From NCBI GenBank assembly GCA_963719225.1, contig CAVRAY010000001.1, positions 1,632,001-1,696,000 on the forward strand: a stretch of DNA of 64,000 nucleotides. Reading direction: 5' to 3'. Shown piece after piece: positions 23,750-39,959 of the stretch; positions within the stretch are counted from its first letter, which is position 1; every line of letters starts with the position of its first letter. The DNA is from Thermoanaerobaculia bacterium. GTDB taxonomy: Bacteria; Acidobacteriota; Thermoanaerobaculia; UBA5066. A program made the position numbers and the translations under genes. The notes below the pieces were generated by a model, which was given only the letters and a program-made list of their open reading frames with translations, ran no database searches and had not been told where the DNA came from.

Positions 23750-23880
23750 GCGGCTCCTAAGGGATTCTTCGGCGTCAAAGACGGGATTCGCCCCATGTTC
23801 GCGCGGCGCTCGAGGGCCTAGGTTTTCCTTGGCACCGGGTGACCCGGAATCCTGCCAATACCGACGAAAAGGAGAACCTC

Positions 23881-24333
23881 ATGGAAACCGCGAAAGTCGA
23901 CATCCGGAAACTCCAGCTTCTCAACGATCGCATCAATCAGTGCATCGATGCGTTGAATCAGGTTCGCGTCTCGGTACACGGCCTCTCCCATGCGTCCGCG
24001 GGCAACCCGGCGGGCCTGGGATCTCCCCTCGCGCAATCGCCCTTCGGCCAGCAATCGCCCTACGCGCAGATTCCCTACGGCGCGCAGGCCTTCGGGGCGG
24101 GTTACGTTCCGGGCCTCGGCCAGCAGACCGGGTTTCAGCAGGGATTCATCTCGCCTCAGGTCCCGGTCGGGATCGGCCAGGGCTTCAGTCCCGCGTTCGG
24201 GCTGAGCCACACGACGCAGGAGGGCCTCGAGAGCCGCCCGGTGTGGACGGATCCGCTCATGGCGGCGCGCATCGCGCAGACGTTCCCGTACCTTTATCTC
24301 TCGGTGTCGCCGGCAGTGGGAACGATCTACTAG
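23881..24333 (+). CDS. Hypothetical protein: N-terminal coiled coil plus Q/G/P/F/Y low-complexity region
   Basis: AAGGAG RBS; METAKVDIRKLQLLNDRINQCIDALNQVR helix, GLSH twice, QSPFGQQSPY-like repeats. Confidence 0.8.
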   Translation: METAKVDIRKLQLLNDRINQCIDALNQVRVSVHGLSHASAGNPAGLGSPLAQSPFGQQSPYAQIPYGAQAFGAGYVPGLGQQTGFQQGFISPQVPVGIGQGFSPAFGLSHTTQEGLESRPVWTDPLMAARIAQTFPYLYLSVSPAVGTIY

Positions 24334-24447
24334 CCGCTTGCCGCGCGCCCGGGTTTATCCGGCGCCGGGAGGAAGCGAATCAGCGCCAGTGGCGGGGCCG
24401 CCCGGTGCGGCCCCGCTGCTTCTCTCCGAGCCGAAAAAGGAGTTGGT

Positions 24448-24993
24448 ATGAACAAGAACGTGGAAACCCTTCCGAACACGGGCATCGACGAGACGATCGG
24501 ACGCATCGAGGACCTCTACCAGAAGGTGACGGGAGTTCCCGTCCCGGCCGGCGATGCTCTCTATTCGCCGATCCCGGCCGAAAGAGATCCCGCCGAGCAC
24601 GTCGAGGAACAGCTCAACCGCCTGCTGGGAATGCTGGGCGGCTGGACGTCGCCGGTGAGTCCTGTGTGGGCGCCGCCGATCTCGATCTCCGAGAGCGAGT
24701 CCGAGATCGTCGTCGAGGCCGATCTTCCCGGAGTCGGCCGGGATCAGGTGACGGTGACGGTCCACGGGAACGCCCTCGTGATCACGGGATCGCGCCTTCT
24801 CTCGCGCGACAACGCGACGCAGCTCCGGCAGAGCGAGCGGCCCCTCGGGCCGTTCCGCCGGGTCGTGATGATACCGGGCATGCGGTCGGGCGAGCCCGTC
24901 GCCCAGATGAAGGACGGCGTCCTCGAGGTCCGGATCCAGAAGGACACGCAGGCGGTGAAGCCGCGGCAGATCGTCGTGAATCACGTGAACTGA
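24448..24993 (+). CDS. Hsp20/alpha-crystallin family small heat-shock protein
   Basis: P.SISE, VEADLPGV, L.ITG.R, ER..G.F.R, A.MKDGVLEVRI.K; AAGGAG RBS. Confidence 0.9.
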   Translation: MNKNVETLPNTGIDETIGRIEDLYQKVTGVPVPAGDALYSPIPAERDPAEHVEEQLNRLLGMLGGWTSPVSPVWAPPISISESESEIVVEADLPGVGRDQVTVTVHGNALVITGSRLLSRDNATQLRQSERPLGPFRRVVMIPGMRSGEPVAQMKDGVLEVRIQKDTQAVKPRQIVVNHVN

Positions 24994-25021
24994 ACGACGG
25001 CCCGAGCCCGCGGCGCGCCAG

Positions 25022-26986
25022 TTAACCGACCCAGACGTCCTTTCCGAAGGCGTGGACGACCGCCTCGTCGAGATCCGAGACGAACGCGACGATCTCGCGG
25101 CAGATGTCGGCCGGAACGAGGGAGCTTCCTTCGAGCTCGCGGCGGTTGCCAGCGGGCAGGAGGATCTTCGCGAGGTTGCGGTTGTAGGCCCCTCGCACCT
25201 TGTACTCGGGCTCTCCGATCGGCTTCACGACGAGGACGTCGTGGGCGTCGGCGACGAGGGCCCCCGTCGACGCGACTGTTTGCGGCACGGGTTTGTCGAG
25301 GAACACGGAGAGGAAGGCCAGCGCCGACGGAAGGCCGGCGGAGAGCCCTCCGGACGGCTCGTCCTCCTTCGTGACCTTGTACGTGTAGCCGTAGTCGAGG
25401 ATGTCGCGCGTTTTTTCCGGCCATTTCGCGCGCGCGTATTCCCGCGCCGAGAAGAACGTATTTCGGACGCCCTGCGTCATCTCGGGCGTGAGGTTTCCGA
25501 GAATCTCCTCGAGGAATCCGCCGCGGCCGCGCTCGGCGGGCCGGCGGGCGGACCAGACTTCGTGCACGAGACCTCGCGGCTTTCCGGCGAGGTGATAGAC
25601 GGCGGCGGCGAGGACGCGACCCACCGGATGCTGCGCGCGTTCCACGGCGTCTTCCAGAGCCGCGGCACGCTTGGCGCAGCGCTCGGCCTCTGCCTTGTGG
25701 CCGAAGATCCCGTGGAAGGCCGCCAGCTGCCGCCAGAGCGACGGCCGGAGCGGTGATGCGTGAAGTGCGGCCTCGAGGCATTCGAGGGTCGTGCGCGCTG
25801 TCTCGGGCCGGCTGAAGTACGCGGCGACGGCGCGCGACGGTTTCTGCCCGTGCCGCTCGAGGAGCCGGCCGATGACGCGAAGGTCGTCGGGCGACTTCTG
25901 GAGGCTCGCGAGGTGGAGGGAGACCGCTTCCTCATCCGCGCCCGCGAGCGCGGCCAGATCGCCGCGGTACTTGAGTCCGAGCGCGTCGTCGTCCCCGTCG
26001 AAGAGCTCGCCGGCGCTTCGACGGTCGCCGCCGAGGGCGAGCGCGATCGCGCTTTCCCGCGGAAAGTCCGGCGCCGCCGATGCCGCGTCCGGAAAGCGGA
26101 TCGTGCTCAGCTTGTCGAGCGGCAGGTAGTGCCGTGCGGCCGCTCGAACGACGTCGGCGAAGGAGGGCCGGTGCATGCGCCGGCGGAAGAGCTCGAGGAA
26201 GCGCCGTTCGTAGCCGGCCGCTTCCTCCTTCCGGCCGAGGAGCCGATAGAGAGACGCCAGGTGCCCCAGCACGGAGACCTTCTCGTAGCTCCTTTCGAAA
26301 TGCTGGTAGACGTTCACGGCCTTCTCCAGGAGATCCTTCGTTCCGATCCGCTCGTAGAGCCGCGCGAGCGCCAGCACCCGGTCGCTGTCGGTCTCGAAGC
26401 CGCGGTCCTTGCCGAGCGATTCCAGGATGGCGCGGGCGGCGTCGAGGTCGCCCGAGAGCTCGGCGATCCAGGCGTTCGCGAGGACGGCGAGCTTGTAGAC
26501 GTCGACGTCCGACGCGCGGTACTTGCGCGCGATCTCCTCGCAGCGCTGGCGCGCCTCGTCCGGACGCTGCTCGAGGAAGAGCCGGAACGCGCGCTCGAGC
26601 TCCAGGAGCGCCGCGGGTTTCCGCCAGAACTGGAACGGCCCGAGCGCGACGTAGTTTCCGGGGCCGCGCTCGCTTTCCCTCGCGAACTGCAGGAGAGAGC
26701 TCAGGCGGATCAAGGCGCCCTGCGCGCGCGGCGCCTTCTCGTGCACCTGCGACCAGCAGGCGATCGCCTCGGAAAGCTCCCCGCGAATGTGCTTGATCTT
26801 CGCGAGGAGGTCGAGCGCCGTCAGATCCTCGGGACGCTCCTCGAGGACGCCTTCGACCTCGGGCTCTGCGTCGTAAAGCTCGCCGAGCTCGACGAGGATG
26901 GAGGCATGGCGGAGGCGGTCGTCGGCGGAATCCGAGATCTCGGCCTGTCCGGAAGCGGCGTCGGTCGTCTCGCGCATGACCCCCAT
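25022..26986 (-). CDS. TPR protein with C-terminal Lon-type (S16) protease domain
   Basis: Helical repeats; C-terminal SGGLSAG (cf. Lon DGPSAG), VASTG, VKPIGEPEYK (cf. PIGG..EK), ILLPAGN; no AAA Walker motifs seen. Confidence 0.75.
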   Translation of the reverse strand: MGVMRETTDAASGQAEISDSADDRLRHASILVELGELYDAEPEVEGVLEERPEDLTALDLLAKIKHIRGELSEAIACWSQVHEKAPRAQGALIRLSSLLQFARESERGPGNYVALGPFQFWRKPAALLELERAFRLFLEQRPDEARQRCEEIARKYRASDVDVYKLAVLANAWIAELSGDLDAARAILESLGKDRGFETDSDRVLALARLYERIGTKDLLEKAVNVYQHFERSYEKVSVLGHLASLYRLLGRKEEAAGYERRFLELFRRRMHRPSFADVVRAAARHYLPLDKLSTIRFPDAASAAPDFPRESAIALALGGDRRSAGELFDGDDDALGLKYRGDLAALAGADEEAVSLHLASLQKSPDDLRVIGRLLERHGQKPSRAVAAYFSRPETARTTLECLEAALHASPLRPSLWRQLAAFHGIFGHKAEAERCAKRAAALEDAVERAQHPVGRVLAAAVYHLAGKPRGLVHEVWSARRPAERGRGGFLEEILGNLTPEMTQGVRNTFFSAREYARAKWPEKTRDILDYGYTYKVTKEDEPSGGLSAGLPSALAFLSVFLDKPVPQTVASTGALVADAHDVLVVKPIGEPEYKVRGAYNRNLAKILLPAGNRRELEGSSLVPADICREIVAFVSDLDEAVVHAFGKDVWVG

Positions 26987-27031: not shown

Positions 27032-27059
27032 TTGACAGCCACTCGGGGGGAAACAGAAT
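27032..27059 (+). promoter_or_regulatory. Sigma70-type promoter upstream of the small ORF and ligase
   Basis: TTGACA (27032-27037), 16-nt spacer, CAGAAT (27054-27059) in an intergenic region. Confidence 0.55.
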
Positions 27060-27143: not shown

Positions 27144-27323
27144 ATGGCACGCATCAAGTCCGGTAAGAAGATGTTGTCGCGAAAGGTCGCGATCGAGTCC
27201 ATGAACTTCGCCCAGGCTCGGAAGCTGCTCGACAAGGAAGGTTTTGCCCGGGTCGTCATCGTCCAGCGCAACGCTCTGGACCCGAGCAAGATCGTTTCCA
27301 TCGGGTTTCACGAAGCCGGTTAA
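27144..27323 (+). CDS. 59-aa small protein (not in ORF track)
   Basis: ATG preceded by GGAAGGAAGG; MARIKSGKKMLSRKVAIESMNFAQARKLLDKEGFARVVIVQRNALDPSKIVSIGFHEAG*; GC-ending codons; promoter upstream. Confidence 0.7.
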   Translation: MARIKSGKKMLSRKVAIESMNFAQARKLLDKEGFARVVIVQRNALDPSKIVSIGFHEAG

Positions 27324-27353
27324 GAGAGACGCGCACACCCGGCGGCCCCTTTC

Positions 27354-28817
27354 ATGAACCGAGAGGCTGCGCTCGGCCTGGAAGAGCTGCGGAAGGTACT
27401 CGAAGAACAGCGACGGGAAGGTGCCGCACCCCGGCCGGGGACCGATGCGGAGAGTGCAAGAGCCGGAGTCAGACGGCTCCTCGCCCGAGAGTTGCTCCTT
27501 TTGAAGCAGACGCTCGTCTACGCGGGCGCGAACGTGCCTTATTACGAGGAGCTGTTTCGGGAACAGCGGTTCGACCCGGACGATTTCCAGACCGTCGCCG
27601 ATCTCCGGCAGTTGCCGCCGCTCCAGAAGCACACGATCGCATCGAACCTCGAGTCATTCCTCAGCCGGAGGGCGATGGTCAATTCGATCGTCTGCACCTC
27701 GGGGACGACGGGCCTGCGGCTTCCCAGATTCATCAGCGAAGAAGAAGACGAGGCTTGCCGGCTGCTGGACAGGATCGACTTCGCCGCTTCGGGCAGGCGG
27801 CAGGAGAAGAAGGCGATTCTCCTGCGCGTGTTTCCCGCGATGCGGCGGTATAGCCGCCCCAGCCGAAACGAGACCTACCTCCAGATTGCAGTGACGCTCA
27901 ACTGGGATTACCCCAGGTACTACACCCGTGTCGATTACTACGATTTTGTCCTCCGGCAGCTCTTCGAGGAGTTCCCGGTGCCGGGAACCGAGGGCCGGGT
28001 GACGGTCGTTCACGTCACGCCTCCTTTCGTGATCCGGTTGCTGACGGAGGAGATGGCGGCGCGTTCCCTGTCTTTTCAAGACACGCGTGTCCGGACGATC
28101 GTCTGCTCCGGCGGTCTGCTGACCGACAGGATCCGCAGGCTCATCGAGCAGAAATGGGGCGCCCAGGCGCTTTCGGTCTACAGTATGACCGAGTCCAACG
28201 CCACGGCCGCGGAGTGTCCGACCTTCCGGAACCGCTACCACTTCAACGCGGCGGTCTATCTCGAGGTGGTCGATCCACTCACCCAGGCGCCGGTTCCGGA
28301 AGGCCATGAAGGCCAGCTCCTCGTGACGACGCTCTTTCCCTTCCAGCAGGCGCAGCCCTTCATCCGCTACAACAGCGGCGACGTCGTGAGGAACTGCGGA
28401 GCGCAGTGCGATTGCGGCGCCATCGCGCCGACTGTCGAGTTCCGCGGGCGACGTGAGCATTGCCTCGACCTGACGGACGTGATTCCCGCCTCCGCAGGAC
28501 ATCGCTTCGTCGCGTCAGCGGACATCCACAACCTCCTCGAGGACATCCCCGAGGTCCCGTCCTTGCTCTACCCGCGGTTCGACCTGAAGCGCGTGAACGG
28601 AAAGAAGGGTTCCGTGGTGGTCCAGCTGAATGTGGAAGCGAGTCACCTCACCGACCCGGCGATGGCCGAGAGGCTCACGCAGCAGGTCACCACCGCCCTG
28701 CAGGCGCAGTACCCGGAGTGGGATTCGCTGATCAGGCGCGGCCGGTTGGCCTGGGACATTCGCTGGCATCACCGGGGCGAAATGGAATCGTTCTTCCGCC
28801 TCTATCCGCCCAGTTGA
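27354..28817 (+). CDS. PaaK/F390-synthetase-like adenylate-forming ligase
   Basis: NVPYY, TSGTTG, YSMTE, YLEVVDP, GQLLVTTL, PFIRYNSGD, CDCG, GR. Confidence 0.88.
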   Translation: MNREAALGLEELRKVLEEQRREGAAPRPGTDAESARAGVRRLLARELLLLKQTLVYAGANVPYYEELFREQRFDPDDFQTVADLRQLPPLQKHTIASNLESFLSRRAMVNSIVCTSGTTGLRLPRFISEEEDEACRLLDRIDFAASGRRQEKKAILLRVFPAMRRYSRPSRNETYLQIAVTLNWDYPRYYTRVDYYDFVLRQLFEEFPVPGTEGRVTVVHVTPPFVIRLLTEEMAARSLSFQDTRVRTIVCSGGLLTDRIRRLIEQKWGAQALSVYSMTESNATAAECPTFRNRYHFNAAVYLEVVDPLTQAPVPEGHEGQLLVTTLFPFQQAQPFIRYNSGDVVRNCGAQCDCGAIAPTVEFRGRREHCLDLTDVIPASAGHRFVASADIHNLLEDIPEVPSLLYPRFDLKRVNGKKGSVVVQLNVEASHLTDPAMAERLTQQVTTALQAQYPEWDSLIRRGRLAWDIRWHHRGEMESFFRLYPPS

Positions 28818-29794
28818 GGAGTACCGCTCTCATTCCGGAATTGGCAGGACGTTTCACACCCCATTTGGTCGTATTGCGCCCAATGTGACCCGAGGCAGCC
28901 TTTTCGGCAGACTGCAGAAACCCGACACGTCCTGGCCATCCACTCTTCGATCTCCCGCCGCGCCACAGCCAGCCGGGCGGCGGACAGGGTGTACGCCGCC
29001 GGCCCCGCCACGTCCCACAGTCCTTTGCCCTTGAAGAGGATGCAGGGCAGCAGGTTGCCGAGCGCGTCGATTCCGAAGATGTCCAGCCCGGCGCGGCATT
29101 CCTGAAACGGCACGTCGTTGAAGATCCTCTTCGTGTTGATTCGATAGCGTTCCCGGAATTCCGCCTGAAGCTCCCGCACGGCTTCTCTCACCGCGAAGCG
29201 TTCGGTTTCCGAAAGTCCCAACGCCTCGTCGTCGTTCAAGAGACCCAGAAGCGTGATGGATTCGGATCCGAGCTCGTGGCCCAGCCGGACGATCTCGCGC
29301 AGCTTCTCGTGGTTGCACCGGGTGACCACGGTGATCAAATGGACCTCGCACCCGGACCGGCTGAGGTGCTCGATCGCCTGCGTGACCCGGTCGAAGCCGC
29401 TCGCGTCGCCCCGCATCGCGTGGTAGGACGCCGCGTCCCATCCGTCCAGCGAGACGGAGATCTCGCTCAAGTATCCGGAGAGCTTCTTCGCCTGGTCGGC
29501 GTCCACGACCGTCCCGTTCGTACAGAGATCCACGCCGTGGCCGAGCCCATGGAGGTAGGCGACGATCTCGTAAATGTCTCTTCTCAACAGCGGCTCGCCA
29601 CCCGACAGAACGACATCGTCGATCCCGATGGCGGACAACCGGTCGGCGATGGCCTTGATCTCGGCGAGCGGCAATTGCGTCCGTCCCTCTTTCTCCACGT
29701 AGCAATGACGACACTCCAGGTTGCATCCCCGCGTGATCTCCCACAGCAATCGGGTCTTCCCGCCACCCGGCCTGAACAAGCACATGTTTTCCAT
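28802..29794 (-). CDS. Radical SAM protein with SPASM/twitch domain
   Basis: CNLECRHC, SGGEPLLR, TNG, SLDG; C-terminal CRAG...GNLLPC...C....CRKGC. Confidence 0.9.
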   Translation of the reverse strand: MENMCLFRPGGGKTRLLWEITRGCNLECRHCYVEKEGRTQLPLAEIKAIADRLSAIGIDDVVLSGGEPLLRRDIYEIVAYLHGLGHGVDLCTNGTVVDADQAKKLSGYLSEISVSLDGWDAASYHAMRGDASGFDRVTQAIEHLSRSGCEVHLITVVTRCNHEKLREIVRLGHELGSESITLLGLLNDDEALGLSETERFAVREAVRELQAEFRERYRINTKRIFNDVPFQECRAGLDIFGIDALGNLLPCILFKGKGLWDVAGPAAYTLSAARLAVARREIEEWMARTCRVSAVCRKGCLGSHWAQYDQMGCETSCQFRNESGTPQLGG

Positions 29795-31011
29795 CAGCGC
29801 CTACACTGCCCGAGCCGGAGCCCGCGATAGACCTCGTGAAACGAATCGCAGATGTGATCGATCTGCGAAGCCGTCAGGGCTTCGTGGGTCGGGAGCGTGA
29901 TGATCGAACCAATCCACGCCTCCGCGTTGCGGCAGCGGCCGGCCTGGTATTGCGGCGCGTACCGGGAGCATGAAAAAGGGCAGTCCGTGAGGCCGTAGCC
30001 TGTTCGATTCGTCAGGATCGGGTACTCGTACGCCGGCCGGTAGCCGTATTCCAGCGTATCGGAAACGATCCCTTTTGCTTTCAGCCCTGCGGCGAAAGCC
30101 TCGGTCCCGTCCCGGTCCAGACCACGAAGATGGACGACGAGCGCGTACGCATTGGCCTTGCTGCCGGGGACCGATTCATAGGCTTCGGCCGCGGTGCAGT
30201 CGGCCAGCCGCTCCGTGATGCTCCGGGCGTGGGCGGATCTTTTTCGAATCTTCTCGTGGAGCTTCGCAACTTGACTGATGCCAAACGCGGCGGTGAACGC
30301 GTTGACTTTGTAATTCCATCCCAGGACGTGACCGGCGCGCCGGTGAATCGCGTCCCACCCCGCGCCCTTGCGGTACACCATCCCGTATCGCTGAATCTCG
30401 CGCATCCGATCCGCGAGATCGTCATCGTCCGTGAGCGTAAAGCCCCCTTCTCCGGTGGAAATCAGCTTTCGCTCGTGCGTGCTCGCGCAAGCCGCCACCC
30501 CGAAGGTGCCGAGCTTCCTCCCGTTGACGGAGGCTCCGACCGAGAGCGCGATGTCCTCGACGACCGGCACCCCGCGTGCTTCGCAGACGCGGGCGACGGC
30601 CTCGACATTCATGGGGTAGCCCCACATCGGCACACATACCACGGCCTTCGTGCGCGGGCCGAGCTTCGCTTGCAGATCGTCGAGGTCAAAATCGAAGCGA
30701 TCGGGTTCGACGTCCGCGAAGACGGGGATCGCATTCTGAAAGAGAACCGCCAGGACCGATTCGATCGTGCCCGCCGGCGACAGGATCACTTCGTCCCCCG
30801 GGCCGATCTCGAGGGCGGCGAGGGCGCCGTGAATCGCCGTGGTGCCCGACGAGAACGCCAGGGCATGCCGGACGCCGAAATACCTGGCAAGAGAGGTTTC
30901 GTACTCTCTGACGAGCTCGCTGCCCCCGGACACCGTCCGGCAGCCCGCGGCACGCTTCAACTGGGCCAGGTCGCAGTCGTCGACGTCGACGTGAAAAGAG
31001 CGCAGGTTCAT
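29794..31011 (-). CDS. DegT/DnrJ/EryC1/StrS-family PLP aminotransferase
   Basis: SSGTTAIH, GDEVI, PVFADV, EDIA, STHERKLISTGEGG (catalytic Lys), GWNYK, ITLPTH. Confidence 0.92.
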   Translation of the reverse strand: MNLRSFHVDVDDCDLAQLKRAAGCRTVSGGSELVREYETSLARYFGVRHALAFSSGTTAIHGALAALEIGPGDEVILSPAGTIESVLAVLFQNAIPVFADVEPDRFDFDLDDLQAKLGPRTKAVVCVPMWGYPMNVEAVARVCEARGVPVVEDIALSVGASVNGRKLGTFGVAACASTHERKLISTGEGGFTLTDDDDLADRMREIQRYGMVYRKGAGWDAIHRRAGHVLGWNYKVNAFTAAFGISQVAKLHEKIRKRSAHARSITERLADCTAAEAYESVPGSKANAYALVVHLRGLDRDGTEAFAAGLKAKGIVSDTLEYGYRPAYEYPILTNRTGYGLTDCPFSCSRYAPQYQAGRCRNAEAWIGSIITLPTHEALTASQIDHICDSFHEVYRGLRLGQCRR

Positions 31012-32216
31012 GTCGCCTGCCGGAAGGAGGCATGGACCCGGCGAAACGCGTCACTGATGTGGGCGATCTCGGGGTCGCCGAGCCCCTCGTGCGTGGGAAG
31101 GGTGACGATCGAAGCCGCGAGCTCCTCCGCGTTGGGGCACCGGTCCGTCCGATACGGCGCCGGGAACCGGGGGCAGGAAAACGGACAGTCGGTGTTCCCA
31201 TATCCGGCCTGCCCCTGGAACAGCGGATACTCGTAGAGCGCCCTGTAGTCGTACTCGAGCGTATCCGACACGATCCCTTCGGCGGCGAGCGCGCGGGCAA
31301 AATCGACGGCGGTCCTGCCGTGCACCGGGTCGATGTGCACGACCAGCGCGTAGTAGTTCGCGCGACTCCCAGCGGCGGGCCTGTACACGCGTGTGCCTGC
31401 CAGGTCGAGCAGCGAGCCCGCGATCCGCTCCGCGTTCCGGGTCCTGCGCCGGATCTTTGCCTCGAGCTTCCCGACCTGACTGATCCCGATCGCGGCTGTG
31501 AAGGCGTTCAGCTTGTAGTTCCAGCCCAGGGAGTGGCCGCCGCCGTCCCTCATGTGATCCAAATCCTTGCCGGAGGCCGCCGTCATCCCGTACCGCTGGA
31601 ATTCGCGCATGCGCCCGGCGAGCGTGGCATCGTCGGTGATCGTGAAGCCGCCTTCGCCGGTGCAGATCAGCTTTCGCTCGTGCGTGCTGGCGCAACCCAC
31701 CGCGCCGAACGTTCCGAGCTTCCTTCCTTCGAAGCAGGCGCCGGTCGCCTGCGCGATGTCCTCGATCAGCGGAACGCCTCGCCGTTCGCAGAGGCGCGCC
31801 AACGCCGCGACGTCCTGCGGATAGCCCCACAGGGGCACGCAGGCAACGGCTTTCGTCCGGGGCCCGATCTTGCGCCCGAGATCGTTCAAGTCCAGGTCGA
31901 AGCAACCCGGCTCGACGTCGCAAAAGACGGGCCTGGCATTCTGAAAGAGGACCGGCAGGCCGGTCATGACGGGCGCCGCCGCGGTCACGATGACCTCGTC
32001 GCCGGGCCCGACCCCGACCGCCGCCATCGCCCCGTGAATCGCAGCGGTTCCGGACGAGAACGCGACCGCGAAGCGCGTGCCGAAATAGCGCGCCAGATGC
32101 TCCTCGTATTCACGGACCGTTTCGCTGCTGCCGGAGATCCGGTCGGAGTGCAGCAGTCGCTCGAGCTGGTCCACCTCGCTCTGGTCGAAAGAGACGGCGC
32201 AGGAATCGACCCTCAT
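31008..32216 (-). CDS. DegT/DnrJ/EryC1/StrS-family PLP aminotransferase (paralogue)
   Basis: SSGTAAIH, EDIAQA, STHERKLICTGEGG, GWNYK, VTLPTH. Confidence 0.92.
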   Translation of the reverse strand: MRVDSCAVSFDQSEVDQLERLLHSDRISGSSETVREYEEHLARYFGTRFAVAFSSGTAAIHGAMAAVGVGPGDEVIVTAAAPVMTGLPVLFQNARPVFCDVEPGCFDLDLNDLGRKIGPRTKAVACVPLWGYPQDVAALARLCERRGVPLIEDIAQATGACFEGRKLGTFGAVGCASTHERKLICTGEGGFTITDDATLAGRMREFQRYGMTAASGKDLDHMRDGGGHSLGWNYKLNAFTAAIGISQVGKLEAKIRRRTRNAERIAGSLLDLAGTRVYRPAAGSRANYYALVVHIDPVHGRTAVDFARALAAEGIVSDTLEYDYRALYEYPLFQGQAGYGNTDCPFSCPRFPAPYRTDRCPNAEELAASIVTLPTHEGLGDPEIAHISDAFRRVHASFRQAT

Positions 32217-33280
32217 GAGGAGCGCCTTTGGACGGCATCCGCGGTCGAATGCACGACGTTCGTCAGGCGCACGTTCCTCTTCAGGTAGGGGCAGATGGGA
32301 ATCGCGCTGTCTTCAGGGTCGCATCTGGGATCCCGCTCGAATCGTCCTCCGAGGCGATTGGAATAGAGCCAGCAGCCGCCCTGGCAGCCTTCGAAGCGGC
32401 CGCACGCGTGACAGGTCTGCATGGGCGCGTCATATTGCTGCCAGTTGCGGGCGTCGTTCCAGATGCTTTCGAGCGTCGCGTCGCGCACGTTTCCCAGGAA
32501 CATGCCGGCATCGAGAAGAAACGTGCACGGGCTGACGTGCCCGTCACAGAGGAGCTGGCAGTACTTCTTCTGCCGTATCCGGCAGCCCAGCTGGTTCGCG
32601 GCCACGTCCTTCCACTCGAGAAAGACCTGTTCCACCACCACGTCGGTTCGGGCGGAGCCCTTCGCCTCGCAGAGAGCCGTCACATCCTCGATGAACCCGA
32701 GCCACTCCCGCTTTCCGATGGTCTCGTCGAGACGACCTGCGCCGGCGCCGAAAGGGGTGAAGTGGAAGAAGGAATGGACCTTCACGCCCAGCTCGAGCGT
32801 GCTGTCCAGCAGGCCCGCGATCGAACGGAGGTTGCGCTGCATCACGACGGTGTTCACCCGCACGGGAATGCCAAGCGCCTGGGCAGCCTGCACGGCGTTC
32901 CAGGCCTTTGCATGCGTCCCGTGGCCGCGGATGCTGTCGTTGACCTGCTCGGGGCCGTCGATGCTGATCATCAGTTCGTCGATCCCGAGCGCGGCCAGCC
33001 GCGCCAGCCCTTTCCGGTCCAGCAGCGTGCCGTTCGATTGAACGCGGACTCGCGCGCCCTGAACGATCGCTTCGGCCACGATCGTCAGGACATCCGGTCG
33101 GAGGAACGGCTCTCCTCCCGTGACGTGGATTTCCCGCGCTCCCAGCGCGATCGCTTCCGCGAGAACCTCGCAGATCCGGGCGGTCGGCAGCTCGGGCATC
33201 GCACGGCGGCCCGAGTCGAAGCAGCAGTGCATGCAACGAAGGTTGCAGCGGTTGGTGACGTGGAGATCGAGCTCTTCCAT
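32213..33280 (-). CDS. Radical SAM/SPASM protein
   Basis: CNLRCMHC, TGGEPF, SIDG; SPASM C...DGHVSPC...CHAC....CQGGC...DPRC; ATG coupled to the upstream stop (TGATG). Confidence 0.9.
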   Translation of the reverse strand: MEELDLHVTNRCNLRCMHCCFDSGRRAMPELPTARICEVLAEAIALGAREIHVTGGEPFLRPDVLTIVAEAIVQGARVRVQSNGTLLDRKGLARLAALGIDELMISIDGPEQVNDSIRGHGTHAKAWNAVQAAQALGIPVRVNTVVMQRNLRSIAGLLDSTLELGVKVHSFFHFTPFGAGAGRLDETIGKREWLGFIEDVTALCEAKGSARTDVVVEQVFLEWKDVAANQLGCRIRQKKYCQLLCDGHVSPCTFLLDAGMFLGNVRDATLESIWNDARNWQQYDAPMQTCHACGRFEGCQGGCWLYSNRLGGRFERDPRCDPEDSAIPICPYLKRNVRLTNVVHSTADAVQRRSS

Positions 33281-34503
33281 CAATGGGGCCGGCCGATCCA
33301 CGTGCACAGGTAGTCCCTGTGCACGAGGGACTTCTGCACGTCCAGCTCCTCGACCCGTGGAAACGGCGGCAGGCGCGAAGCCTCGCCCTCCGAGAATCGC
33401 ACCGGGCAATAGGGATCGCTGGCACACAGCGTGCGCTCGCCGGTCCGGTAAAGGTGGCTATAGAAGGCCCGGGCCGCACATCCGCCGCGGCAGGTCTCGA
33501 GCCATCGGCACTCCGCACAGCCGTCGATCCGTCCCGGGTTCGCATGGCGGCGCCGGAACGCGCGGAACTGCGGCGAAGCCAGAATGGTTCGTACGTCCTG
33601 CCTGAGCAGGTCGCCGGCCTTGTAGTCGTGAATGTAGATGCACGGCGAGATCGGCATCTCTCCGGCCGGCGTCACGCTGTGGATGCGGAAGCTGCTTCGA
33701 CCGCACGGACATCCGGCGCCCTTGTATCCCGCGACCGCCGCGAGCAAGGGGTCGCCCAGGTCGACCTGGCGGGTGCCGGCGAGGAGCCGTTGGAACCCCG
33801 CGTAGAACTGGGCCGGTGAAAGTTGCGCGGCCTGGTGCTCTGGTGCGACCGGCCGTAGGGTGTTGACCCGAATGTTGGCGGCGTACGCACGGGCGAGCTC
33901 CAGAAAGCCGTCGACGTGCCGCGGACCGAAGTTCCAGTTCATGGCACAGAGAATCACGCTTCGTTCGATCCCGTACTTCTGGCAGATGGAGAGAGCCTCC
34001 ACGGCCAGCGGAAACATGCGGGCGCCGCGGTTCGTGTCGTGCTCCTCCGGAAACGGGCTGTCGAACGAGATGTCCACGTCGTTGAGAAGCCGCAGGACGT
34101 CCGGGTGCTTGCGCTCGAGGTGCAGCACCGTGACCCCGCTGCTCGTCAGGCCGACCTTGATGCCTCGGTCGACCAGGGTCCTGACGATGTACGGGAGAAG
34201 CGACTTGCTGGCATCGGGGCCCGACGTGTAGAGCGGTTCGTTGCCGCCCAGGTTCACGGTTTCCACACCCAGATCGGCCAGCTGGCCCACGACCCTGTCG
34301 ACCATCGACTGTTCGAGGTCGATGCCGGGTCGCCGCGCGCTCGCCGAATAACAGTGCCGGCATTGGTTCGGACAGTAGTTCCCCAGCGACCAGCCCACGT
34401 TGCGCACGGCCATGGGGCCTTCCGGAAGGCCCGGGAAATCCTCTCCCGGTGCCGGCGCCTCGAAATGCCGCTGCGGATCGATCGAACTGGGCAGATGGCT
34501 CAT
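33280..34503 (-). CDS. Radical SAM/SPASM protein
   Basis: CPNQCRHC, GGNEP; SPASM CPCG...SPC...CAEC.....CRGGC...DPYCP. Confidence 0.9.
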   Translation of the reverse strand: MSHLPSSIDPQRHFEAPAPGEDFPGLPEGPMAVRNVGWSLGNYCPNQCRHCYSASARRPGIDLEQSMVDRVVGQLADLGVETVNLGGNEPLYTSGPDASKSLLPYIVRTLVDRGIKVGLTSSGVTVLHLERKHPDVLRLLNDVDISFDSPFPEEHDTNRGARMFPLAVEALSICQKYGIERSVILCAMNWNFGPRHVDGFLELARAYAANIRVNTLRPVAPEHQAAQLSPAQFYAGFQRLLAGTRQVDLGDPLLAAVAGYKGAGCPCGRSSFRIHSVTPAGEMPISPCIYIHDYKAGDLLRQDVRTILASPQFRAFRRRHANPGRIDGCAECRWLETCRGGCAARAFYSHLYRTGERTLCASDPYCPVRFSEGEASRLPPFPRVEELDVQKSLVHRDYLCTWIGRPH

Positions 34504-34650: not shown

Positions 34651-34727
34651 TGGTGGGCCCGACAGGAATCGAACCTGCGACACGCGGTTTAGGAAACCGC
34701 TGCTCTATCCAACTGAGCTACGGGCCC
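34651..34727 (-). tRNA. tRNA-Arg(CCT), integration target
   Basis: GGGCCCGTAGCTCAGTTGGATAGAGCAGCGGTTTCCTAAACCGCGTGTCGCAGGTTCGATTCCTGTCGGGCCCACCA; anticodon CCT. Confidence 0.96.
34689..34727 (-). repeat. att core (5' half of tRNA-Arg), left copy
   Basis: Identical to 48839-48877. Confidence 0.95.
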
Positions 34728-35960
34728 ACCTTTTGTTTCTAACGACTTAGCAAAAGCGGCCTCGGACGAAACGGGTTCATTCTCGCTCGCGACCCGTACC
34801 AAAGCCGTACCGGCTTTCCGCGAGTGTACCTTGCCCGCGAGCCGGAGAACGCGGTCCGTCCGCGCCGAGATCCGCTTCGCCTCCTGCCACCTCTCGGAGT
34901 CGCCCCGGCCGCTCTCGTCGTAGTGCCGCTCCGTGACGGCCGTTCCTCGGTGCCCGAGGTTCGCCGAGACGGCCGAGAGCGTCTCGCCGCTTGTGCGGAG
35001 GAGAGTCGCGTTCTCGGCGCGAGCCCATCCCACCGTCGTCTTCTTCGGGACGCCCGCGCGCTCGCACGCGGCCTCAAGTGTGCGCCGGAGCGACGAGAGC
35101 GAGAGCGGGTGCCGGGCCTTCTCGCGGCGGCCGTCGGGGTGAGCCTGCCTGTAGCTCTCGACGGCGAGGAGCGGCGCGTCGGGCGCGAGCGGCGGCAGCG
35201 TGCTGATGTAGAGCTTGAGCGACCGCGCGAGGCCGGGGGAGACCGGCTTCTCGACGATCTCGCGGCGCCGGCTCTTCCGCCCCTTGTTGCGGCGGACGAG
35301 GAGGACTCGGTGCCGGAGGTCTACGTCTCCGACCTGTAGGCGCCGGACCTCGGCCTCGCGGATGCCGGTGTAGAGGCCGATCTCAAGAGCCGTCCGCGCG
35401 ACGGTGCCGAGCGGAAGCTCGCGGAGGAGGCGCCCAAGCTCGTCGGCCTTGAGCGTCTTCGGCTCGCGCGCCGGCAACTCAAGCGGCGGCATCGGCGGCA
35501 CCGGCAGCTGCGCGATCTTGAGCGCGGTCCGAAGGATGACGAGCCCGTTATGTATCGCGCGGCCGGCCGACGAGGTCGCGCGCTTGCCCCAAGCGATGAA
35601 GTCGACGAGGTCCTCGCGCCGGAGGTCCGCGTCGGCGGCCTCGCCGCGCCACCGGACGAAGAGCCCGCGCGCCTGGGCGATGCTCCGAAGGTGCGCGGCC
35701 GACTTCCCGAGGACCGAGCACTCGCGCGCGTAGGCGTCGAGAACGCCGCGGATCGTCGGCGGGGGAGTCGGGTCCGGCACGCTGATGCCGAAGCTCCGAA
35801 GGGCGGCGCGGCTCTGGAGGGTGTCGCGGAGCAGCTCGGCCTCCTCGCGCGTTCGGAACGTCTTCTTCACCTCTCGGCCGTTCACCTGAATGCGCAGCTT
35901 CCATTTCCCGCGCTTCGACCTCGCGATGCCGTCGACGGTTCCGGTTCGGGTCGTCCTCAT
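34689..35960 (-). CDS. Tyrosine recombinase/integrase
   Basis: CAGGAGG RBS; arm-binding-like N-terminus, TGIREAEV (R), NKG (K), GWAR (HxxR variant), LGH, TERHY (Y); stop lies inside the att/tRNA. Confidence 0.88.
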   Translation of the reverse strand: MRTTRTGTVDGIARSKRGKWKLRIQVNGREVKKTFRTREEAELLRDTLQSRAALRSFGISVPDPTPPPTIRGVLDAYARECSVLGKSAAHLRSIAQARGLFVRWRGEAADADLRREDLVDFIAWGKRATSSAGRAIHNGLVILRTALKIAQLPVPPMPPLELPAREPKTLKADELGRLLRELPLGTVARTALEIGLYTGIREAEVRRLQVGDVDLRHRVLLVRRNKGRKSRRREIVEKPVSPGLARSLKLYISTLPPLAPDAPLLAVESYRQAHPDGRREKARHPLSLSSLRRTLEAACERAGVPKKTTVGWARAENATLLRTSGETLSAVSANLGHRGTAVTERHYDESGRGDSERWQEAKRISARTDRVLRLAGKVHSRKAGTALVRVASENEPVSSEAAFAKSLETKGGPVAQLDRAAVS

Positions 35961-36189
35961 GAGTTCCTCCTGTCTTCGGGAAGGGGCGGGCGGGGAGTTG
36001 CGGCGCGAGGCTTCCGCACGCCGAGCCTGTCGCACGCGGCCGTCCACGCGCTCTCCTCCGTCTCGTGATCCGGCGCGCCCGAGCGGCGCGCTTCGTCGCG
36101 TCGATAGCCTCGGTGCGAGTCTGCGTCGTCATCGTGACCTTCTCGTTCTTGGTTCCTTCGTCGTGCGTGCGGGCGCGCTTCACGGCCCG

Positions 36190-37479
36190 TCAGACCCCAT
36201 CGAAGCGCTCGGCGCGAAGACTTTCTAGTGCCCCTGAAATGCCGGGCATGAGAGAGCTTGCGGTGATGCCCATGCTCCTGAGTTCCCTCAAGGCATTCCT
36301 TGCATCCTCCGCCGGAAGGTCAAACCACTCCAAGGCGTTCGGCACAAAGCCGGCGCTCGCATCTCCGTACGTACTGAGGAAGTGTATTGATTGCTGCGGC
36401 ACAGCCCGAGGATTGAAGGTTGCAGACGCCCTTACGAAGAGAGGATGACGTTCAGGGCCCGCAATTCTCCAAGGCGACGTTAAGTCGTCCCCAACCAGCC
36501 CGGATCCGATCTTCGTCCTATCGAGCTTGTAAATCCGGACGCGGTGCTCCGTGCGCCCCGCTAGACCGCACTCGCATCTCGGCCGGAGCGCGTTCGCGAA
36601 CGCGAAGTACGCAGCGATCATCGGCGAGAGTGACCAGTCAAGAAGAGGCGTCGGATAACCGTGATGCTGGGCGAGCGCGACGAGAAGAGCGTAGGTCTTT
36701 GGATCGCTTGCATCGAGGAGTTGCCCCATCGACGTCGACACAATCTCGGCGACGGCGGCCAGGTCCTCTTTTTCGAATCTGGCAAGGTCATACCGGCCCG
36801 ATCGGAAGAACGCCGTCGTCAGAGGGCGCATATTGCAGCCCTCTCCGCGGTAGAGAAACCGCGTGCGTGGCGCCTGTTCACCTCGAGCAAGCTCGAGTGT
36901 TTGGTCCCGAAACTCGTCCCAAGAACGATCACTATTCGCTCGCGACAAGACCCTCGCTACGACCTTTTCGAGATGGAAGTCCCCGCTCTTATCGGGTGAG
37001 TCGCCGCCGCTCCCTTTCTCATAGGAGACGGACCACTGTCCTACTAACGAATCACCTTCAACGGGCATCCACTCCGGCCTGAGGGGCTTAGCCGGATCAC
37101 TCGAAACCGGGACAATCTTCGCCGATGCCGTACACCTGTTTGGCAACGTCACGTTCGAGAAGGCTGACCGGGGCCGCACCGTCCACCCGCGCCGATCGTA
37201 GAAAACTGCCTCCGAGTCGCTGGTAACGAATTTGAAGCCCCCCCCAGGTGTTGGCCATGCATGGACAGGTAGCAGAACGAAAGGCGTATCACCGTGGGGG
37301 TCAGGGGAATCGATGTACGCGTGCCCGTTGATGTACGCGTGCCCGTCAGGGAGGGTTTGCAGGGATTGCTGGTCAAACGTGAGAACCAGTTGACGGAATC
37401 GGTCGACGAGCCCACCCCACCGGCCGACTAGAGCCGAAATTTCGGTTACAGCGCTCACTCCTTCGCCTCCGGCGCTCAC
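36190..37479 (-). CDS. FRG-domain protein
   Basis: FLYRGE, AQHHGYPTPLLDWSLSPMIAAYFA, NPRAVPQQS, LRSMGITASSLMPG; visibly more AT-rich than flanks. Confidence 0.88.
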   Translation of the reverse strand: MSAGGEGVSAVTEISALVGRWGGLVDRFRQLVLTFDQQSLQTLPDGHAYINGHAYIDSPDPHGDTPFVLLPVHAWPTPGGGFKFVTSDSEAVFYDRRGWTVRPRSAFSNVTLPNRCTASAKIVPVSSDPAKPLRPEWMPVEGDSLVGQWSVSYEKGSGGDSPDKSGDFHLEKVVARVLSRANSDRSWDEFRDQTLELARGEQAPRTRFLYRGEGCNMRPLTTAFFRSGRYDLARFEKEDLAAVAEIVSTSMGQLLDASDPKTYALLVALAQHHGYPTPLLDWSLSPMIAAYFAFANALRPRCECGLAGRTEHRVRIYKLDRTKIGSGLVGDDLTSPWRIAGPERHPLFVRASATFNPRAVPQQSIHFLSTYGDASAGFVPNALEWFDLPAEDARNALRELRSMGITASSLMPGISGALESLRAERFDGV

Positions 37480-37706
37480 GTTCGCGCCTTCTTCTTCGTG
37501 CTCACGACGCTCGGCGTTGGCCCGACCGCGATCCGATCCGCTACCGCGCGCCGCACCATCTCTGCGACCGACGACAGGCCCTCGCGCTTCGCGGCCCTAC
37601 GCCACGCCGCGAGCGTCCCTTTCGGGAGCTTCACGACGAACGCTTCGATGTGCGTTCGGCCACGCGGCCGACCCGGCTTTCGCTTCTTCGCCTGTTTCGT
37701 GGCCAT
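37476..37706 (-). CDS. Small ribbon-helix-helix-like DNA-binding protein with AT-hook-like motif
   Basis: KPGRPRG, FVVKLP...WRRAAKREGLSSVAEMVRRAV; stop overlaps the FRG start. Confidence 0.7.
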   Translation of the reverse strand: MATKQAKKRKPGRPRGRTHIEAFVVKLPKGTLAAWRRAAKREGLSSVAEMVRRAVADRIAVGPTPSVVSTKKKART

Positions 37707-37829
37707 AGTTTTAGTCTATCTCAAAACTCGGAAGCGCGCCACGCGACGCCCGGCGGTCGGTCGGGATGCCGAGGTCGGAGAGGTCGCGCGGCTGGCGCTC
37801 GAAGCGCCCTGCTTTATCCTTGCGTTAAC

Positions 37830-38328
37830 GTGGCTGAACAGCTCGCGACCATCTGCCCTAAGTGCGGCTTTCAACACCCGGCCCCGGCGCAGGCATGCGC
37901 GAAGTGCGGGGTTATCTTTGCGCGCTTCTCTCCTGAAAAGGTCCGCGTCCCGGCCGCCCAAGTTGTGGTCTCGACAACGACACTCGGAGAGCCGTTCGAC
38001 ACGCTCCGACCCGTCTACGCCGTCACGACGAATATGCAGGGCGTCTTGGACGCTGCCGCTCGGAAGCTCGGGGTCGACGTCAAGGCGGTGACGGATTCCG
38101 AGGTGTTCTCGGCGTTCCTGCTCGGCGACTCGGTCGCAAACTACAAGGCGTTCCCGATCGCTTTCGCGGTCGTGCGTCGAAGAACTGAAGCGCCAGACGG
38201 CCCGGCTTGGCGGAGACGCAGTCGTTGGGTTGCGGATGAACTTCGACCTCGATCGGTCGGGAGGCGGTCTTCAGGGCTTCACGATGCAGCTCTTCGGGAC
38301 CGCAGTGCGGCGCCGTCAGTCGTCCTGA
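37830..38328 (+). CDS. Zinc-ribbon plus YbjQ/UPF0145-like protein (frameshift near 38172)
   Basis: CPKCG...CAKCG; shifted frame gives EELKRQTARLGGDAVVGLRMNFD...QLFGTAVR. Confidence 0.65.
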
Positions 38329-38359
38329 GGCTCGGCCGTCGCGCTACCATCGCCACCTC

Positions 38360-38572
38360 GTGAGCACCGGCACCGTCAACATGTCCTTCGCCCCGATCGG
38401 AGCGAACCTGCCGGACTTCGACAATTACTACTGCCGCGACTGCCGGCGCATCGTTCACGTAAGGAAGGGATCGCCCGGCTTTCGCGCGTGCCCGACTCCG
38501 GGCTGCACGGGCCCGACGGGCTTCGGGATGTACTGGAAGACGCCGAGGCCGCGAGCCGGCGTGAAGCGCTGA
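38360..38572 (+). CDS. Small Cys-rich putative zinc-binding protein
   Basis: YYCRDC...CPTPGC. Confidence 0.5.
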   Translation: MSTGTVNMSFAPIGANLPDFDNYYCRDCRRIVHVRKGSPGFRACPTPGCTGPTGFGMYWKTPRPRAGVKR

Positions 38573-38812
38573 GACGCGCGGGAGAACGGCCTCGCCCGTC
38601 ACGGACGCGGGCGAGCTGCTGCGCGCGGGCGGCGCGATCCTTCGGGATGCCGAGGTCGGAGAGGGTCGGAGCAGACGGGACGCCGCGCCTCGTCTGCTGA
38701 GACTTCGGCTCGCCTCTCGCAGCCCGAGGCGCCGCGTAGAATTGCGTTGAATCGCTATCAGGATCGTCAGGACGGAGACCGCCACGCCCCCTGACCATAT
38801 GGAGACTCGAAC

Positions 38813-39343
38813 ATGAGGAAGACTTTCTTGACCGCCGTAGCCATGCGCTTTCTGACATTAGCGGTGGCGCTATCGTCCGGTGTAGTTCTCGCACAGAAGC
38901 CCGCCGACGTTCACGGCTGGGGAAAAGTGAAGTGGGGGATGACCCTCGCGCAGATCCAGAAGCTCTATCCAGAGGCGGAGCCGTTCACGAAGACGTGGGA
39001 AGACGGAAGAAAGTCGTCTGGACTGAGAATCCCCAAATTCGACCTGATCCACTTCCCGTTCGAGGTCACGTTCTGGAAGAAGGACGCCGACAAGAGGCTC
39101 GATTCAATCAGCCTCAGTACCGAGGCGGGCATGGTCGTGTTTAGGGAACTTGAAAAGCAGCTGACGCTCAAGTACGGCTCTCCTACGTTGAAGGATGATT
39201 CGAAGCCTCGGAAACGCTCCCGCACGTGGATGTTTCCGTCAACTGAGATTGAACTCTTGTTTTTGGAGTGGTTGCCTCCAGCTCCATCGGAAGTGAACCT
39301 CGGCTACTCGCCCGTCGATAAGGGTTCGCGCGACAAGTTGTAG
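38813..39343 (+). CDS. Hypothetical secreted protein (cargo)
   Basis: Signal peptide, GWGKVKWGMT, LTLKYGSP; AT-richer than the backbone. Confidence 0.7.
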   Translation: MRKTFLTAVAMRFLTLAVALSSGVVLAQKPADVHGWGKVKWGMTLAQIQKLYPEAEPFTKTWEDGRKSSGLRIPKFDLIHFPFEVTFWKKDADKRLDSISLSTEAGMVVFRELEKQLTLKYGSPTLKDDSKPRKRSRTWMFPSTEIELLFLEWLPPAPSEVNLGYSPVDKGSRDKL

Positions 39344-39656
39344 TCGATTCTCTTGAAGGGGGTCGAGAAGTGGCCCGCCGGGCGGCGCCATCGCCCAGCC
39401 GACGAGAGCCGCCCCAACGGGCCGCACGTTCCGTCAGGGCAGACCCTTCGATGCACGATGACGAGGAAGGTTCGTGTTTTCACCGGTAGCTCCTTTCAAG
39501 GGGAAACCCGTTCCAACGGTGAAACGGGTTTTGCGCGCGAAGGTAGGGGCGGGCGCTCGCAACGCCCGCGCAGTAGCGGGGTCCGCCGAACCCTCGGCCA
39601 CGAGGACCGCGACCGGCGACGCGCAACGGCGCACCGCGACGGCGGAGGTGGGAGAT

Positions 39657-39908
39657 TCACCACGGGAACTTCGTGCCGCCGAGGACGGGGCGCGGCTCGA
39701 AGCCGTCGTCGGGCGCGAGCTTTGTGAGCGACTCGGCGTCCTTCTCGGCTCTCGCGGCTTCGCGGAAGTCGCACTGTCCAAAATCGTTCGCGCTGTAGAT
39801 GAGTGTCGATTCTTGGCCGAGTCGCTCGTCGGATGCGGCGACGGCGGCCTTGAGGTCGCTCTCGCTCGGTCGGTCGATCGGGCCGAAGGTGAGACCGAAG
39901 AGTTTCAT
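39657..39908 (-). CDS. Hypothetical protein, 83 aa
   Basis: AAAGGAG RBS; co-oriented with the element backbone. Confidence 0.6.
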   Translation of the reverse strand: MKLFGLTFGPIDRPSESDLKAAVAASDERLGQESTLIYSANDFGQCDFREAARAEKDAESLTKLAPDDGFEPRPVLGGTKFPW

Positions 39909-39959
39909 GATGACGTGCTCCTTTCGTTGGTCGTTGGTCGATGGTTGGGAAGGGACGGG

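Follow-up and report, generated by a model that had tools for sequence, protein, structure and literature searches.

Gene content of the cluster

Positions 27144-34503 of the 64,000-nucleotide stretch analyzed here (hereafter the window; contig CAVRAY010000001.1 of a Thermoanaerobaculia bacterium) are occupied by seven genes: a small open reading frame (ORF) and an adenylating ligase on the plus strand, and three radical S-adenosylmethionine (SAM) enzymes and two DegT-family aminotransferases, ordered rS1-rS2-AT1-AT2-rS3, on the minus strand. The cluster likely makes a new amino sugar or aminonucleoside through radical oxidation, amination and acylation. Its features are as follows.

27032-27059, plus strand: sigma70-like promoter match (TTGACA-16-CAGAAT, 10/12) upstream of the small ORF and ligase; weak (2 sites against 1.1 expected in shuffles)
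27144-27323, plus strand: conserved small protein of 59 amino acids (aa) without a family, possible partner or carrier of the ligase; homologues at 66, 52, 49 and 47%; no Pfam match
27354-28817, plus strand: adenylating enzyme of PaaK/F390-synthetase fold, 487 aa, distinct subfamily; PaaK-type by Foldseek (AlphaFold2 pLDDT 81)
28802-29794, minus strand: rS3, twitch-type radical SAM enzyme, 330 aa, with an invariant Cys5; predicted keto-forming dehydrogenase or dehydratase
29794-31011, minus strand: AT2, DegT-family pyridoxal phosphate (PLP) aminotransferase, STHERK type; catalytic Lys present, D-x-x-L replacing D-x-x-Q
31008-32216, minus strand: AT1, DegT-family PLP aminotransferase, STHERK type, with D-x-x-Q
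32213-33280, minus strand: rS2, radical SAM/SPASM enzyme of 355 aa when read from the corrected start; members of its family recur next to rS1
33280-34503, minus strand: rS1, 407-aa radical SAM/SPASM enzyme from a family that is widespread and unnamed, with eight SPASM Cys, Cys400 and 12 Arg/His/Lys invariant
34651-34727, minus strand: tRNA-Arg(cct), a neighbor that marks a variable cargo slot and is not counted as part of the pathway

The five minus-strand genes are translationally coupled (TGATG overlaps at rS1/rS2 and AT2/rS3, ATGA at rS2/AT1 and AT1/AT2) and convergent with the small ORF-ligase unit, the 3' ends of ligase and rS3 overlapping by 16 bp. An earlier note on this DNA had described just such an operon, with overlapping starts and stops, converging on a small ORF plus an adenylating ligase beside tRNA-Arg; the tRNA shares the strand of rS1 and lies 147 bp upstream of it. 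The start of rS2, previously placed at 33427, moves to 33280 because of the overlapping TGATG and ATGA junctions. Also as described earlier, no cyclase, glycosyltransferase, peptidase or exporter is found among the cluster's genes, and neither a flippase, a glycosyltransferase nor a nucleotidyltransferase lies in or beside it. Among the best 25 NCBIfam matches per protein, none of the six enzymes reaches a family cut-off, except rS1 with a generic SPASM-domain model.

Conservation and genomic setting

Four public runs from three studies (X1 to X4; four of the seven listed) were compared with the region, and their contigs, approximately 90-96% identical to it, belong to close relatives. The small ORF-ligase junction is bridged by X2 record 9 and X4 record 24, ligase-rS3 by X3 record 19, rS3-AT2 by X2 record 12, AT2-AT1 by X1 record 5, and AT1-rS2-rS1 by X1 record 7. 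All junctions are therefore bridged in related strains, but the full cluster is on no single contig. More distant co-occurrence was deduced from equal record sizes among the top matches of three separate protein searches: a 13,900-bp record would carry rS1 (80%), one aminotransferase (56%) and the ligase (74%), a 9,462-bp record rS1 (69%), two aminotransferases and the ligase (64%), and a 10,007-bp record rS1 and the ligase (52% each). The earlier note had made its proposal depend on these genes occurring together elsewhere, and they do, both across the junctions of related strains and, going by record sizes, for ligase, aminotransferases and rS1 in the more distant records. A scan of a genome collection with AT1 alone gave a single match among 62 pattern matches, an unrelated DegT at 30%.

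The flanking gene for a tetratricopeptide-repeat protein with a Lon-like domain (TPR-Lon) is present in 3 of 28 congeners, where the slot between it and the tRNA measures ∼1.3, 2.9 or 11.9 kb and is filled by other genes. Scans of 60 relatives, 400 genomes of the phylum and 400 of the class (overlapping samples) found no rS1. Variable slot contents and the lack of rS1 in relatives thus mark the cluster as sporadic cargo. GC content at third codon positions is 0.78-0.86 in the cluster genes and a little higher, 0.86-0.875, in uvrB and the TPR-Lon gene. The cluster is a real, laterally acquired biosynthetic unit.

An exact 39-nt repeat of the tRNA-Arg 5' half (34689-34727 and 48839-48877) bounds an integrase element on the side of the tRNA away from the cluster, and the window holds no duplicate of the tRNA 3' end. 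Membership of the cluster in that element was rejected, since the attachment repeat delimits 34689-48877 and the cluster lies outside it. The 14.2-kb element itself encodes a tyrosine integrase, an FRG-domain protein, an AAA_25 ATPase and an MT-A70 methyltransferase, and several congeners carry integrases or partial tRNA copies at the same tRNA-Arg.

rS1 and its neighborhoods

A search with rS1 returned 592 proteins among 7,995 scored, with 119 homologues listed at 50-80% identity. Among the matches listed, named homologues come from Actinomycetota, Alphaproteobacteria and Acidobacteriota; plasmid copies occur in Streptomyces, Phaeobacter and Enterococcus, and no characterized family member was found. 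Both rS1 and rS2 match Pfam SPASM (E 2e-6 and 2.6e-8, respectively) and carry the full SPASM signature, taken here as CxxxCxxC plus a C-terminal Cx9-15Gx4C...Cx2Cx5Cx3Cx14-18C-type motif for two auxiliary clusters. The eight SPASM cysteines of rS1, Cys400 in a C-terminal YLCTW strand and 12 Arg/His/Lys residues are retained in 120 of 120 homologues, and the invariance of these 12 basic residues makes an anionic substrate a consistent choice. Active-site cysteines serve as hydrogen-atom donors in epimerizing and cyclizing radical enzymes.

Structurally, the AlphaFold2 model of rS1 (pLDDT 89.7) resembles BlsE, PqqE, anSME and sactipeptide maturases in Foldseek at only 12-18% identity, so that no solved enzyme is an rS1 orthologue, and a profile search of the PDB gave a best E of only about 1e-4. 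BlsE, which acts on a nucleoside, is the top Foldseek match (E 1.7e-12). A viral scan yielded one rS1 locus and therefore no general phage link. At that locus (L087, 6075-12773), a low-GC viral contig ends in a cassette of B12 radical SAM enzyme, rS1, MFS transporter and pyrophosphatase, which adjoins a transposase-like ORF.

For genomic neighborhood analysis, 80 of 226 rS1 relatives from a metagenome scan were kept and joined by three plasmid loci and the window, giving 84 loci, 82 of them gene-called, in 48 groups at 85% identity. Counts refer to 30 non-redundant groups with at least 4 kb of flank, window excluded; neighbor labels were obtained by scanning 124 and 57 selected proteins against Pfam and were propagated by BLAST. 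Another radical SAM gene is present in 26 groups, a B12 radical enzyme in 15, a small pyrophosphatase in 14, an rS3-like gene in 8, rS2-like and DegT genes in 6 each, a glycosyltransferase in 5 and an AMP-binding enzyme in 3. A nucleotide-handling gene (Tmk-like kinase, PNP phosphorylase, NUDIX, NPP, adenosine deaminase, HD, nucleotidyltransferase or RNR) lies within 8 kb of rS1 in 17/30 groups, a figure that becomes 20/30 if an HD-like family, excluded because just one of its members has a Pfam match, and a marginal one, is included. When only queries from another group are allowed, which avoids circularity, the count is 9/30; the same queries match 43 of 2,000 random windows of the host genome (2%), a rough control, as it is BLAST-based and uses a single genome. 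rS1 thus acts as a fixed core around which tailoring genes are exchanged, mostly in nucleotide contexts. One locus (L012) independently combines rS1 and a PaaK-like ligase with a pair of rS2-like enzymes and an ORF whose sequence shows a NUDIX-box-like motif.

Two further arrangements were observed. A candidate aminoglycoside-like cluster (L066, 4700-14687) comprises rS1, a dehydroquinate (DHQ)-synthase-like cyclase, an rS3-like enzyme, a Gfo/Idh/MocA dehydrogenase, a carbamoyltransferase and a GT2 glycosyltransferase, and stands out as a clear exception to the nucleotide contexts. A recurrent rS1 cluster type (L040, L044, L054, L031, L035) holds a nucleotidyltransferase, an HD-like protein, one or two rS3-like genes, a DegT in opposite orientation and, in most cases, a PPDK-like kinase.

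rS2 and rS3

rS2 and rS3 are each 22-35% identical to families that recur near rS1. rS2 is a full SPASM enzyme (C233, C252, C290, C293, C299, C303 and C320) with an extra conserved C-terminal PxC. rS3 has no Pfam SPASM match, no CxxC and not the full SPASM cysteine set. Its family retains a CxY/FR motif before the barrel together with C233, C251 and C290; C5 and these three are the only extra cysteines invariant in 11 family members, among which C296, C300, C313 and C317 are confined to the window's copy. The four invariant cysteines are predicted from sequence to ligate one auxiliary cluster, twitch-like. The earlier assignment of three radical SAM/SPASM enzymes therefore stands for rS1 and rS2, by Pfam match and cysteine set, but not for the twitch-type rS3. 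Pfam finds no B12-binding domain in any of the three.

A DegT gene is present in 5 of the 8 rS1 groups with an rS3-like gene versus 1 of the 22 without; seen from the other side, rS3-like genes accompany 5/6 DegT-bearing groups. The five groups with both represent one cluster type, and their DegT falls among canonical DegTs, unlike AT1/AT2. As the two kinds of DegT belong to different clades, the rS3-type/aminotransferase pairing arose at least twice, and this recurrence fits rS3 as a ketone maker. The predicted logic of oxidation, amination and acylation put forward in the earlier note gains support from this context.

Assignment of rS3 as a prokaryotic viperin was rejected (67.5 bits against an NCBIfam cut-off of 180; PADLOC pVip matches spanning the barrel only). 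A plasmid search gave no rS2 match at 1e-25 and, for rS3, only 25-32% matches, two of them beside PqqD genes, too distant to inform.

The tandem aminotransferases

AT1 and AT2 are close paralogues (57% identity over 399 aa) that share the STHERKLI and GYGxTDCPFSC motifs, as first noticed in the raw sequence. Both motifs are present in the pair, but they are less distinctive than had been supposed: STHxxK marks a wider subfamily, and CP(F/W) recurs in many unrelated DegTs. Both proteins match PF01041 (E 7e-77 and 2e-73), and the PLP-binding D153 and Schiff-base K182 are invariant in 25 sequences. AT2-type copies carry D-x-x-L and AT1-type copies D-x-x-Q at a position where Gln or His is usual and where the residue usually contacts the PLP hydroxyl; the AT1 and AT2 sites may therefore differ. 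Hetero-oligomeric aminotransferases encoded by tandem genes have precedent, with one partner truncated in the case described in PMC11726168. Some aminotransferase homologues (P0124-P0127) mix AT1- and AT2-type motifs, suggesting gene conversion between tandem paralogues.

In a quick tree of 67 rows (SH-aLRT support, no bootstrap), AT1 and AT2 fall with STHxxK aminotransferases, which a split with SH-aLRT 98-99 separates from canonical DegTs; on the STHxxK side, close homologues at 54-80%, about a dozen in number, make up a clade (SH-aLRT 100). The genome's four canonical DegTs are encoded elsewhere and fall in the other clade. Of four plasmid regions with STHxxK members that were examined, three (Pantoea, Mycetohabitans, Rhizobium) adjoin Gfo/Idh/MocA and NUDIX genes, forming a triad, with a second STHxxK paralogue in two of these, and the fourth adjoins a zinc alcohol dehydrogenase. 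A weaker plasmid match, a candidate for the subfamily, occurs in Sodalis near a 2-deoxy-scyllo-inosose (DOI) synthase. BtrR/RbmB-type PDB entries are mid-ranked for AT1 (E 1e-33 to 1e-35).

Plasmids of Pantoea ananatis and Mycetohabitans share a cluster (L088, 8396-20664; L089, 8854-20177) of Gfo/Idh/MocA, two STHxxK DegTs, NUDIX, FAD oxygenase, desaturase, methylthioadenosine phosphorylase, HADs and MFS genes. This uncharacterized cluster is a candidate aminonucleoside or amino-sugar pathway, of which a single literature search found no description.

Glycan loci often contain DegT and PaaK/CapK-like genes, and the cluster might accordingly supply an unusual amino sugar or acyl decoration for an envelope glycan built by genes elsewhere. 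Glycosyltransferases in 5 of the 30 rS1 groups and a PMT-type membrane transferase in L010 and L012 agree with such a role, but the absence of glycosyltransferase, flippase and nucleotidyltransferase genes in or beside the cluster, the location of the canonical DegTs elsewhere and in another clade, and the swappable tRNA-adjacent slot make it quite improbable.

The ligase and the 59-aa protein

The ligase subfamily comprises 13 homologues at 48-78%, after which identity drops to at most 27% with PaaK over comparable length. It has the ANL fold and keeps the adenylation motifs TSGTTG, YSMTE, RYNSGD and GR, and lacks the C-terminal basic motif found in two PaaK rows of the alignment. Foldseek relates its AlphaFold2 model to PaaK, AjiA1, NatL2 and ClxA (E 7e-26), and its scores against PaaK and F390 synthetase equivalogs (60-113 bits) stay below their cut-offs of 300-800. 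Ligases of this fold produce coenzyme A esters, amides or esters; the F390 synthetase reaction is AMP transfer to a hydroxyl.

The small ORF is single-copy in the genome. Its four short homologues, found among five matches, share a conserved pattern, and a near-terminal Glu is invariant in 5/5 sequences. It is linked to the ligase in two other runs, and a profile of it finds no homologue in any other fetched locus, all rS1 loci included. The protein has no Pfam and no usable Atlas match, no Cys and no carrier motif.

This protein could be the precursor of a ribosomally made, post-translationally modified peptide (RiPP), or a carrier, with the radical enzymes acting on it or on a ligase-tethered substrate. 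Its conservation and ligase linkage, the prevalence of SPASM peptide maturases among the structural matches of rS1, and Fic25, a carrier-dependent enzyme, as the best PDB match of AT1 would all suit that role. We nevertheless regard it as very unlikely. The small ORF travels with the ligase instead of rS1, an association that speaks against a RiPP precursor, and its profile is unmatched in other rS1 loci. CxxxCxxC begins at residues 44, 12 and 24 of the three radical enzymes, leaving no N-terminal room for a RiPP recognition element (RRE), and the cluster contains no RRE/PqqD, peptidase or exporter, nor a precursor conserved beside a maturase. No NCBIfam maturase cut-off is reached, and the 59-aa sequence is devoid of Cys and carrier motif. 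RRE-less maturases exist, so these absences only lower the chance of a RiPP system. Of the candidate substrates first listed for the cluster, a nucleotide or nucleotide-linked sugar is favored and a peptide disfavored.

Relation to characterized pathways

In puromycin and ADG biosynthesis, 3'-amino-3'-deoxynucleosides arise through an NAD dehydrogenase and an aminotransferase together with a NUDIX hydrolase and a phosphatase (PMC9239236, PMC11641026). The puromycin/A201A/ADG pathways (Pur10-Pur4-Pur7-Pur3; AdgB-E) resemble the cluster in its proposed oxidation of a sugar hydroxyl followed by PLP-dependent transamination, and the nearest plasmid relatives of AT1/AT2 share the pur10/pur4/pur7 and adgB/C/D layout, a link of gene layout only. 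The seven genes include no Pur10/AdgB dehydrogenase, Pur7 NUDIX or Pur3 phosphatase, nor a Pur6 or MFS homologue; three radical SAM enzymes, two aminotransferases and a PaaK-fold ligase are present instead.

Butirosin biosynthesis likewise places a radical SAM enzyme with an auxiliary cluster (BtrN) beside a DegT (BtrR/S), and BtrN is a twitch dehydrogenase (PMC10337720), as rS3 is twitch-type. Here there is no DOI synthase and no glycosyltransferase, the two aminotransferases are distinct, and rS1 and rS2 are full SPASM enzymes. With no cyclase and no BtrN orthologue, the cluster falls outside the 2-deoxystreptamine (BtrC/BtrR/BtrN) pathways. The analogy to BtrN/BtrR drawn in the earlier note is thus mechanistic but not one of sequence, BtrN scoring E 1e-4 for rS2 and not being listed for rS1 or rS3.

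The same logic could operate on a cyclitol, sugar phosphate or nucleoside diphosphate (NDP)-hexose, giving an aminocyclitol or acylated diamino sugar without a nucleobase, in a BtrN/BtrR-like or kanosamine-like manner. Kanosamine, too, is made by a dehydrogenase and DegT pair. The presence of two aminotransferases suits a double amination like that of 2-deoxystreptamine, the rS3 architecture recalls BtrN, and the L066 gene set, with its cyclase-like and Gfo/Idh/MocA genes, points the same way. The cluster, however, has no cyclase, BtrR/RbmB-type matches of AT1 are mid-ranked, similarity to BtrN is marginal, and rS1 neighborhoods are dominated by nucleotide genes. We consider such a product possible but unlikely.

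BlsE of blasticidin S, a radical enzyme acting on a nucleoside sugar, is the top Foldseek match of rS1 and a top-3 sequence match of rS2 and rS3. It is reportedly paired with BlsH. The matches are confined to the barrel at 16% identity, and no cytosylglucuronic acid (CGA) synthase is encoded here.

Minimal radical SAM pathways acting on a host nucleotide are known for albucidin (AlbA/AlbB = AlsA/AlsB) and oxetanocin (OxsA/OxsB), as outlined in PMC7074753 and PMC13331322. In half of the rS1-family loci there is a B12 radical enzyme, for which OxsB is the best PDB match (one member checked), and some loci have Tmk-like, PPDK-like or RNR genes, like the albucidin region. The cluster itself has no OxsB/AlsB-type B12 enzyme, and the B12 partner checked is 531 aa long versus 744 aa for OxsB. 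Identity of rS1 with AlbA was rejected on the description of AlbA as biotin-synthase-like in PMC7074753, rS1 having no such match. The small 4'-thiothymidine (thmABC) and albomycin (AbmM) clusters have no scaffold-forming enzyme, and in them a nucleotide sugar is remodeled by a radical SAM enzyme (PMC12691670). That paper reports thmA-C clusters in Enterobacterales and Vibrio, a taxon range that differs from that of the named rS1 homologues and by which rS1 is unlikely to be ThmA; no kinase or NTPase is present here. Since two or three genes suffice on a host nucleotide in these albucidin and 4'-thiothymidine accounts, the objection that a scaffold-forming enzyme is missing is weakened.

By this comparison, the cluster would work most like a hybrid of a puromycin/ADG amination module and a BtrN/BlsE-type radical oxidation, while lacking the genes that define each. 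As initially stated, it matches no recognized pathway: it belongs to none of those compared, and no description of the gene set or of the rS1 family was found in the literature, although subscription literature and supplements may hold one.

Proposed pathway

We see about an even chance that the sugar of a nucleotide, or a nucleotide-linked sugar, is oxidized by oxygen-independent radical chemistry, transaminated and acylated to a new aminonucleoside, the substrate, reactions, order and product all being deduced from the gene set and its context. rS1 would carry out the family-defining first radical step on a phosphorylated sugar. rS3, possibly with rS2, would convert a sugar carbon to a ketone by oxidation or dehydration, taking the job that an NAD-dependent Gfo/Idh/MocA enzyme (the Pur10/AdgB role) has in other loci with this aminotransferase subfamily; as the cluster has no NAD dehydrogenase, the ketone for the DegT has to be supplied by a radical enzyme or from elsewhere. 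AT1 and AT2 would transaminate the ketone or ketones, acting at two positions or forming a pair whose active sites are unequal. The ligase would then activate a carboxylic acid with ATP and acylate the new amine (or transfer AMP), perhaps helped by the 59-aa protein, with completion and export of the product left to host phosphatases and transporters.

Several observations weigh against this pathway. The cluster itself contains no nucleotide-handling gene, phosphatase, exporter or resistance gene, 13/30 rS1 groups have no nucleotide-handling gene, 5/30 have glycosyltransferases, and the rS1, rS3-like, DHQ-synthase-like, carbamoyltransferase and GT2 genes of L066 point to a cyclitol. The BlsE match is weak (16% identity, TM 0.50, root-mean-square deviation 10), and peptide-modifying SPASM enzymes reach higher TM scores against the rS1 model (0.55-0.60). 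The putative kinship of AT1/AT2 to Pur4/AdgC runs through triad-layout proxies only; the triad clusters are themselves uncharacterized and might work on NDP-hexoses, given the GalE and NudK-like genes present among them. For AT1, the best sequence match in the PDB is 8GYH, identical in sequence to 8GYJ (Fic25), an enzyme that aminates a carrier-bound amino acid.

A broader reading, offered tentatively and thought rather unlikely in its entirety, would make rS1 the gateway enzyme of a large unrecognized class of nucleotide-derived products, spread across phyla by swapped tailoring modules. The cluster would then yield a di-aminated, acylated nucleoside, its radical enzymes replacing the puromycin-type NAD dehydrogenase, with Cys400 as radical quencher and the 59-aa protein as carrier of the ligase.

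Other features of the window

At 23839-26986, genes for a low-complexity Gln/Gly/Pro protein and an HSP20 protein converge on the TPR protein with a Lon-protease-like C-terminal domain. A uvrB-like gene at 19291-21272 is split into two overlapping frames (19291-20172 and 19716-21272), a frameshift or sequencing error, and 12-nt repeats at 56750-57052 encode a Thr/Pro-rich linker within the ORF at 55947-57407.

Significance

Nucleoside and amino-sugar antibiotics that have no scaffold-forming signature gene escape standard genome mining; albucidin was discovered through mutagenesis, according to PMC7074753. rS1 is a conserved marker for many such clusters, and the 7.4-kb version described here is compact enough to be expressed whole. 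It could yield three uncharacterized radical SAM families, one aminotransferase subfamily and possibly a new antimetabolite.

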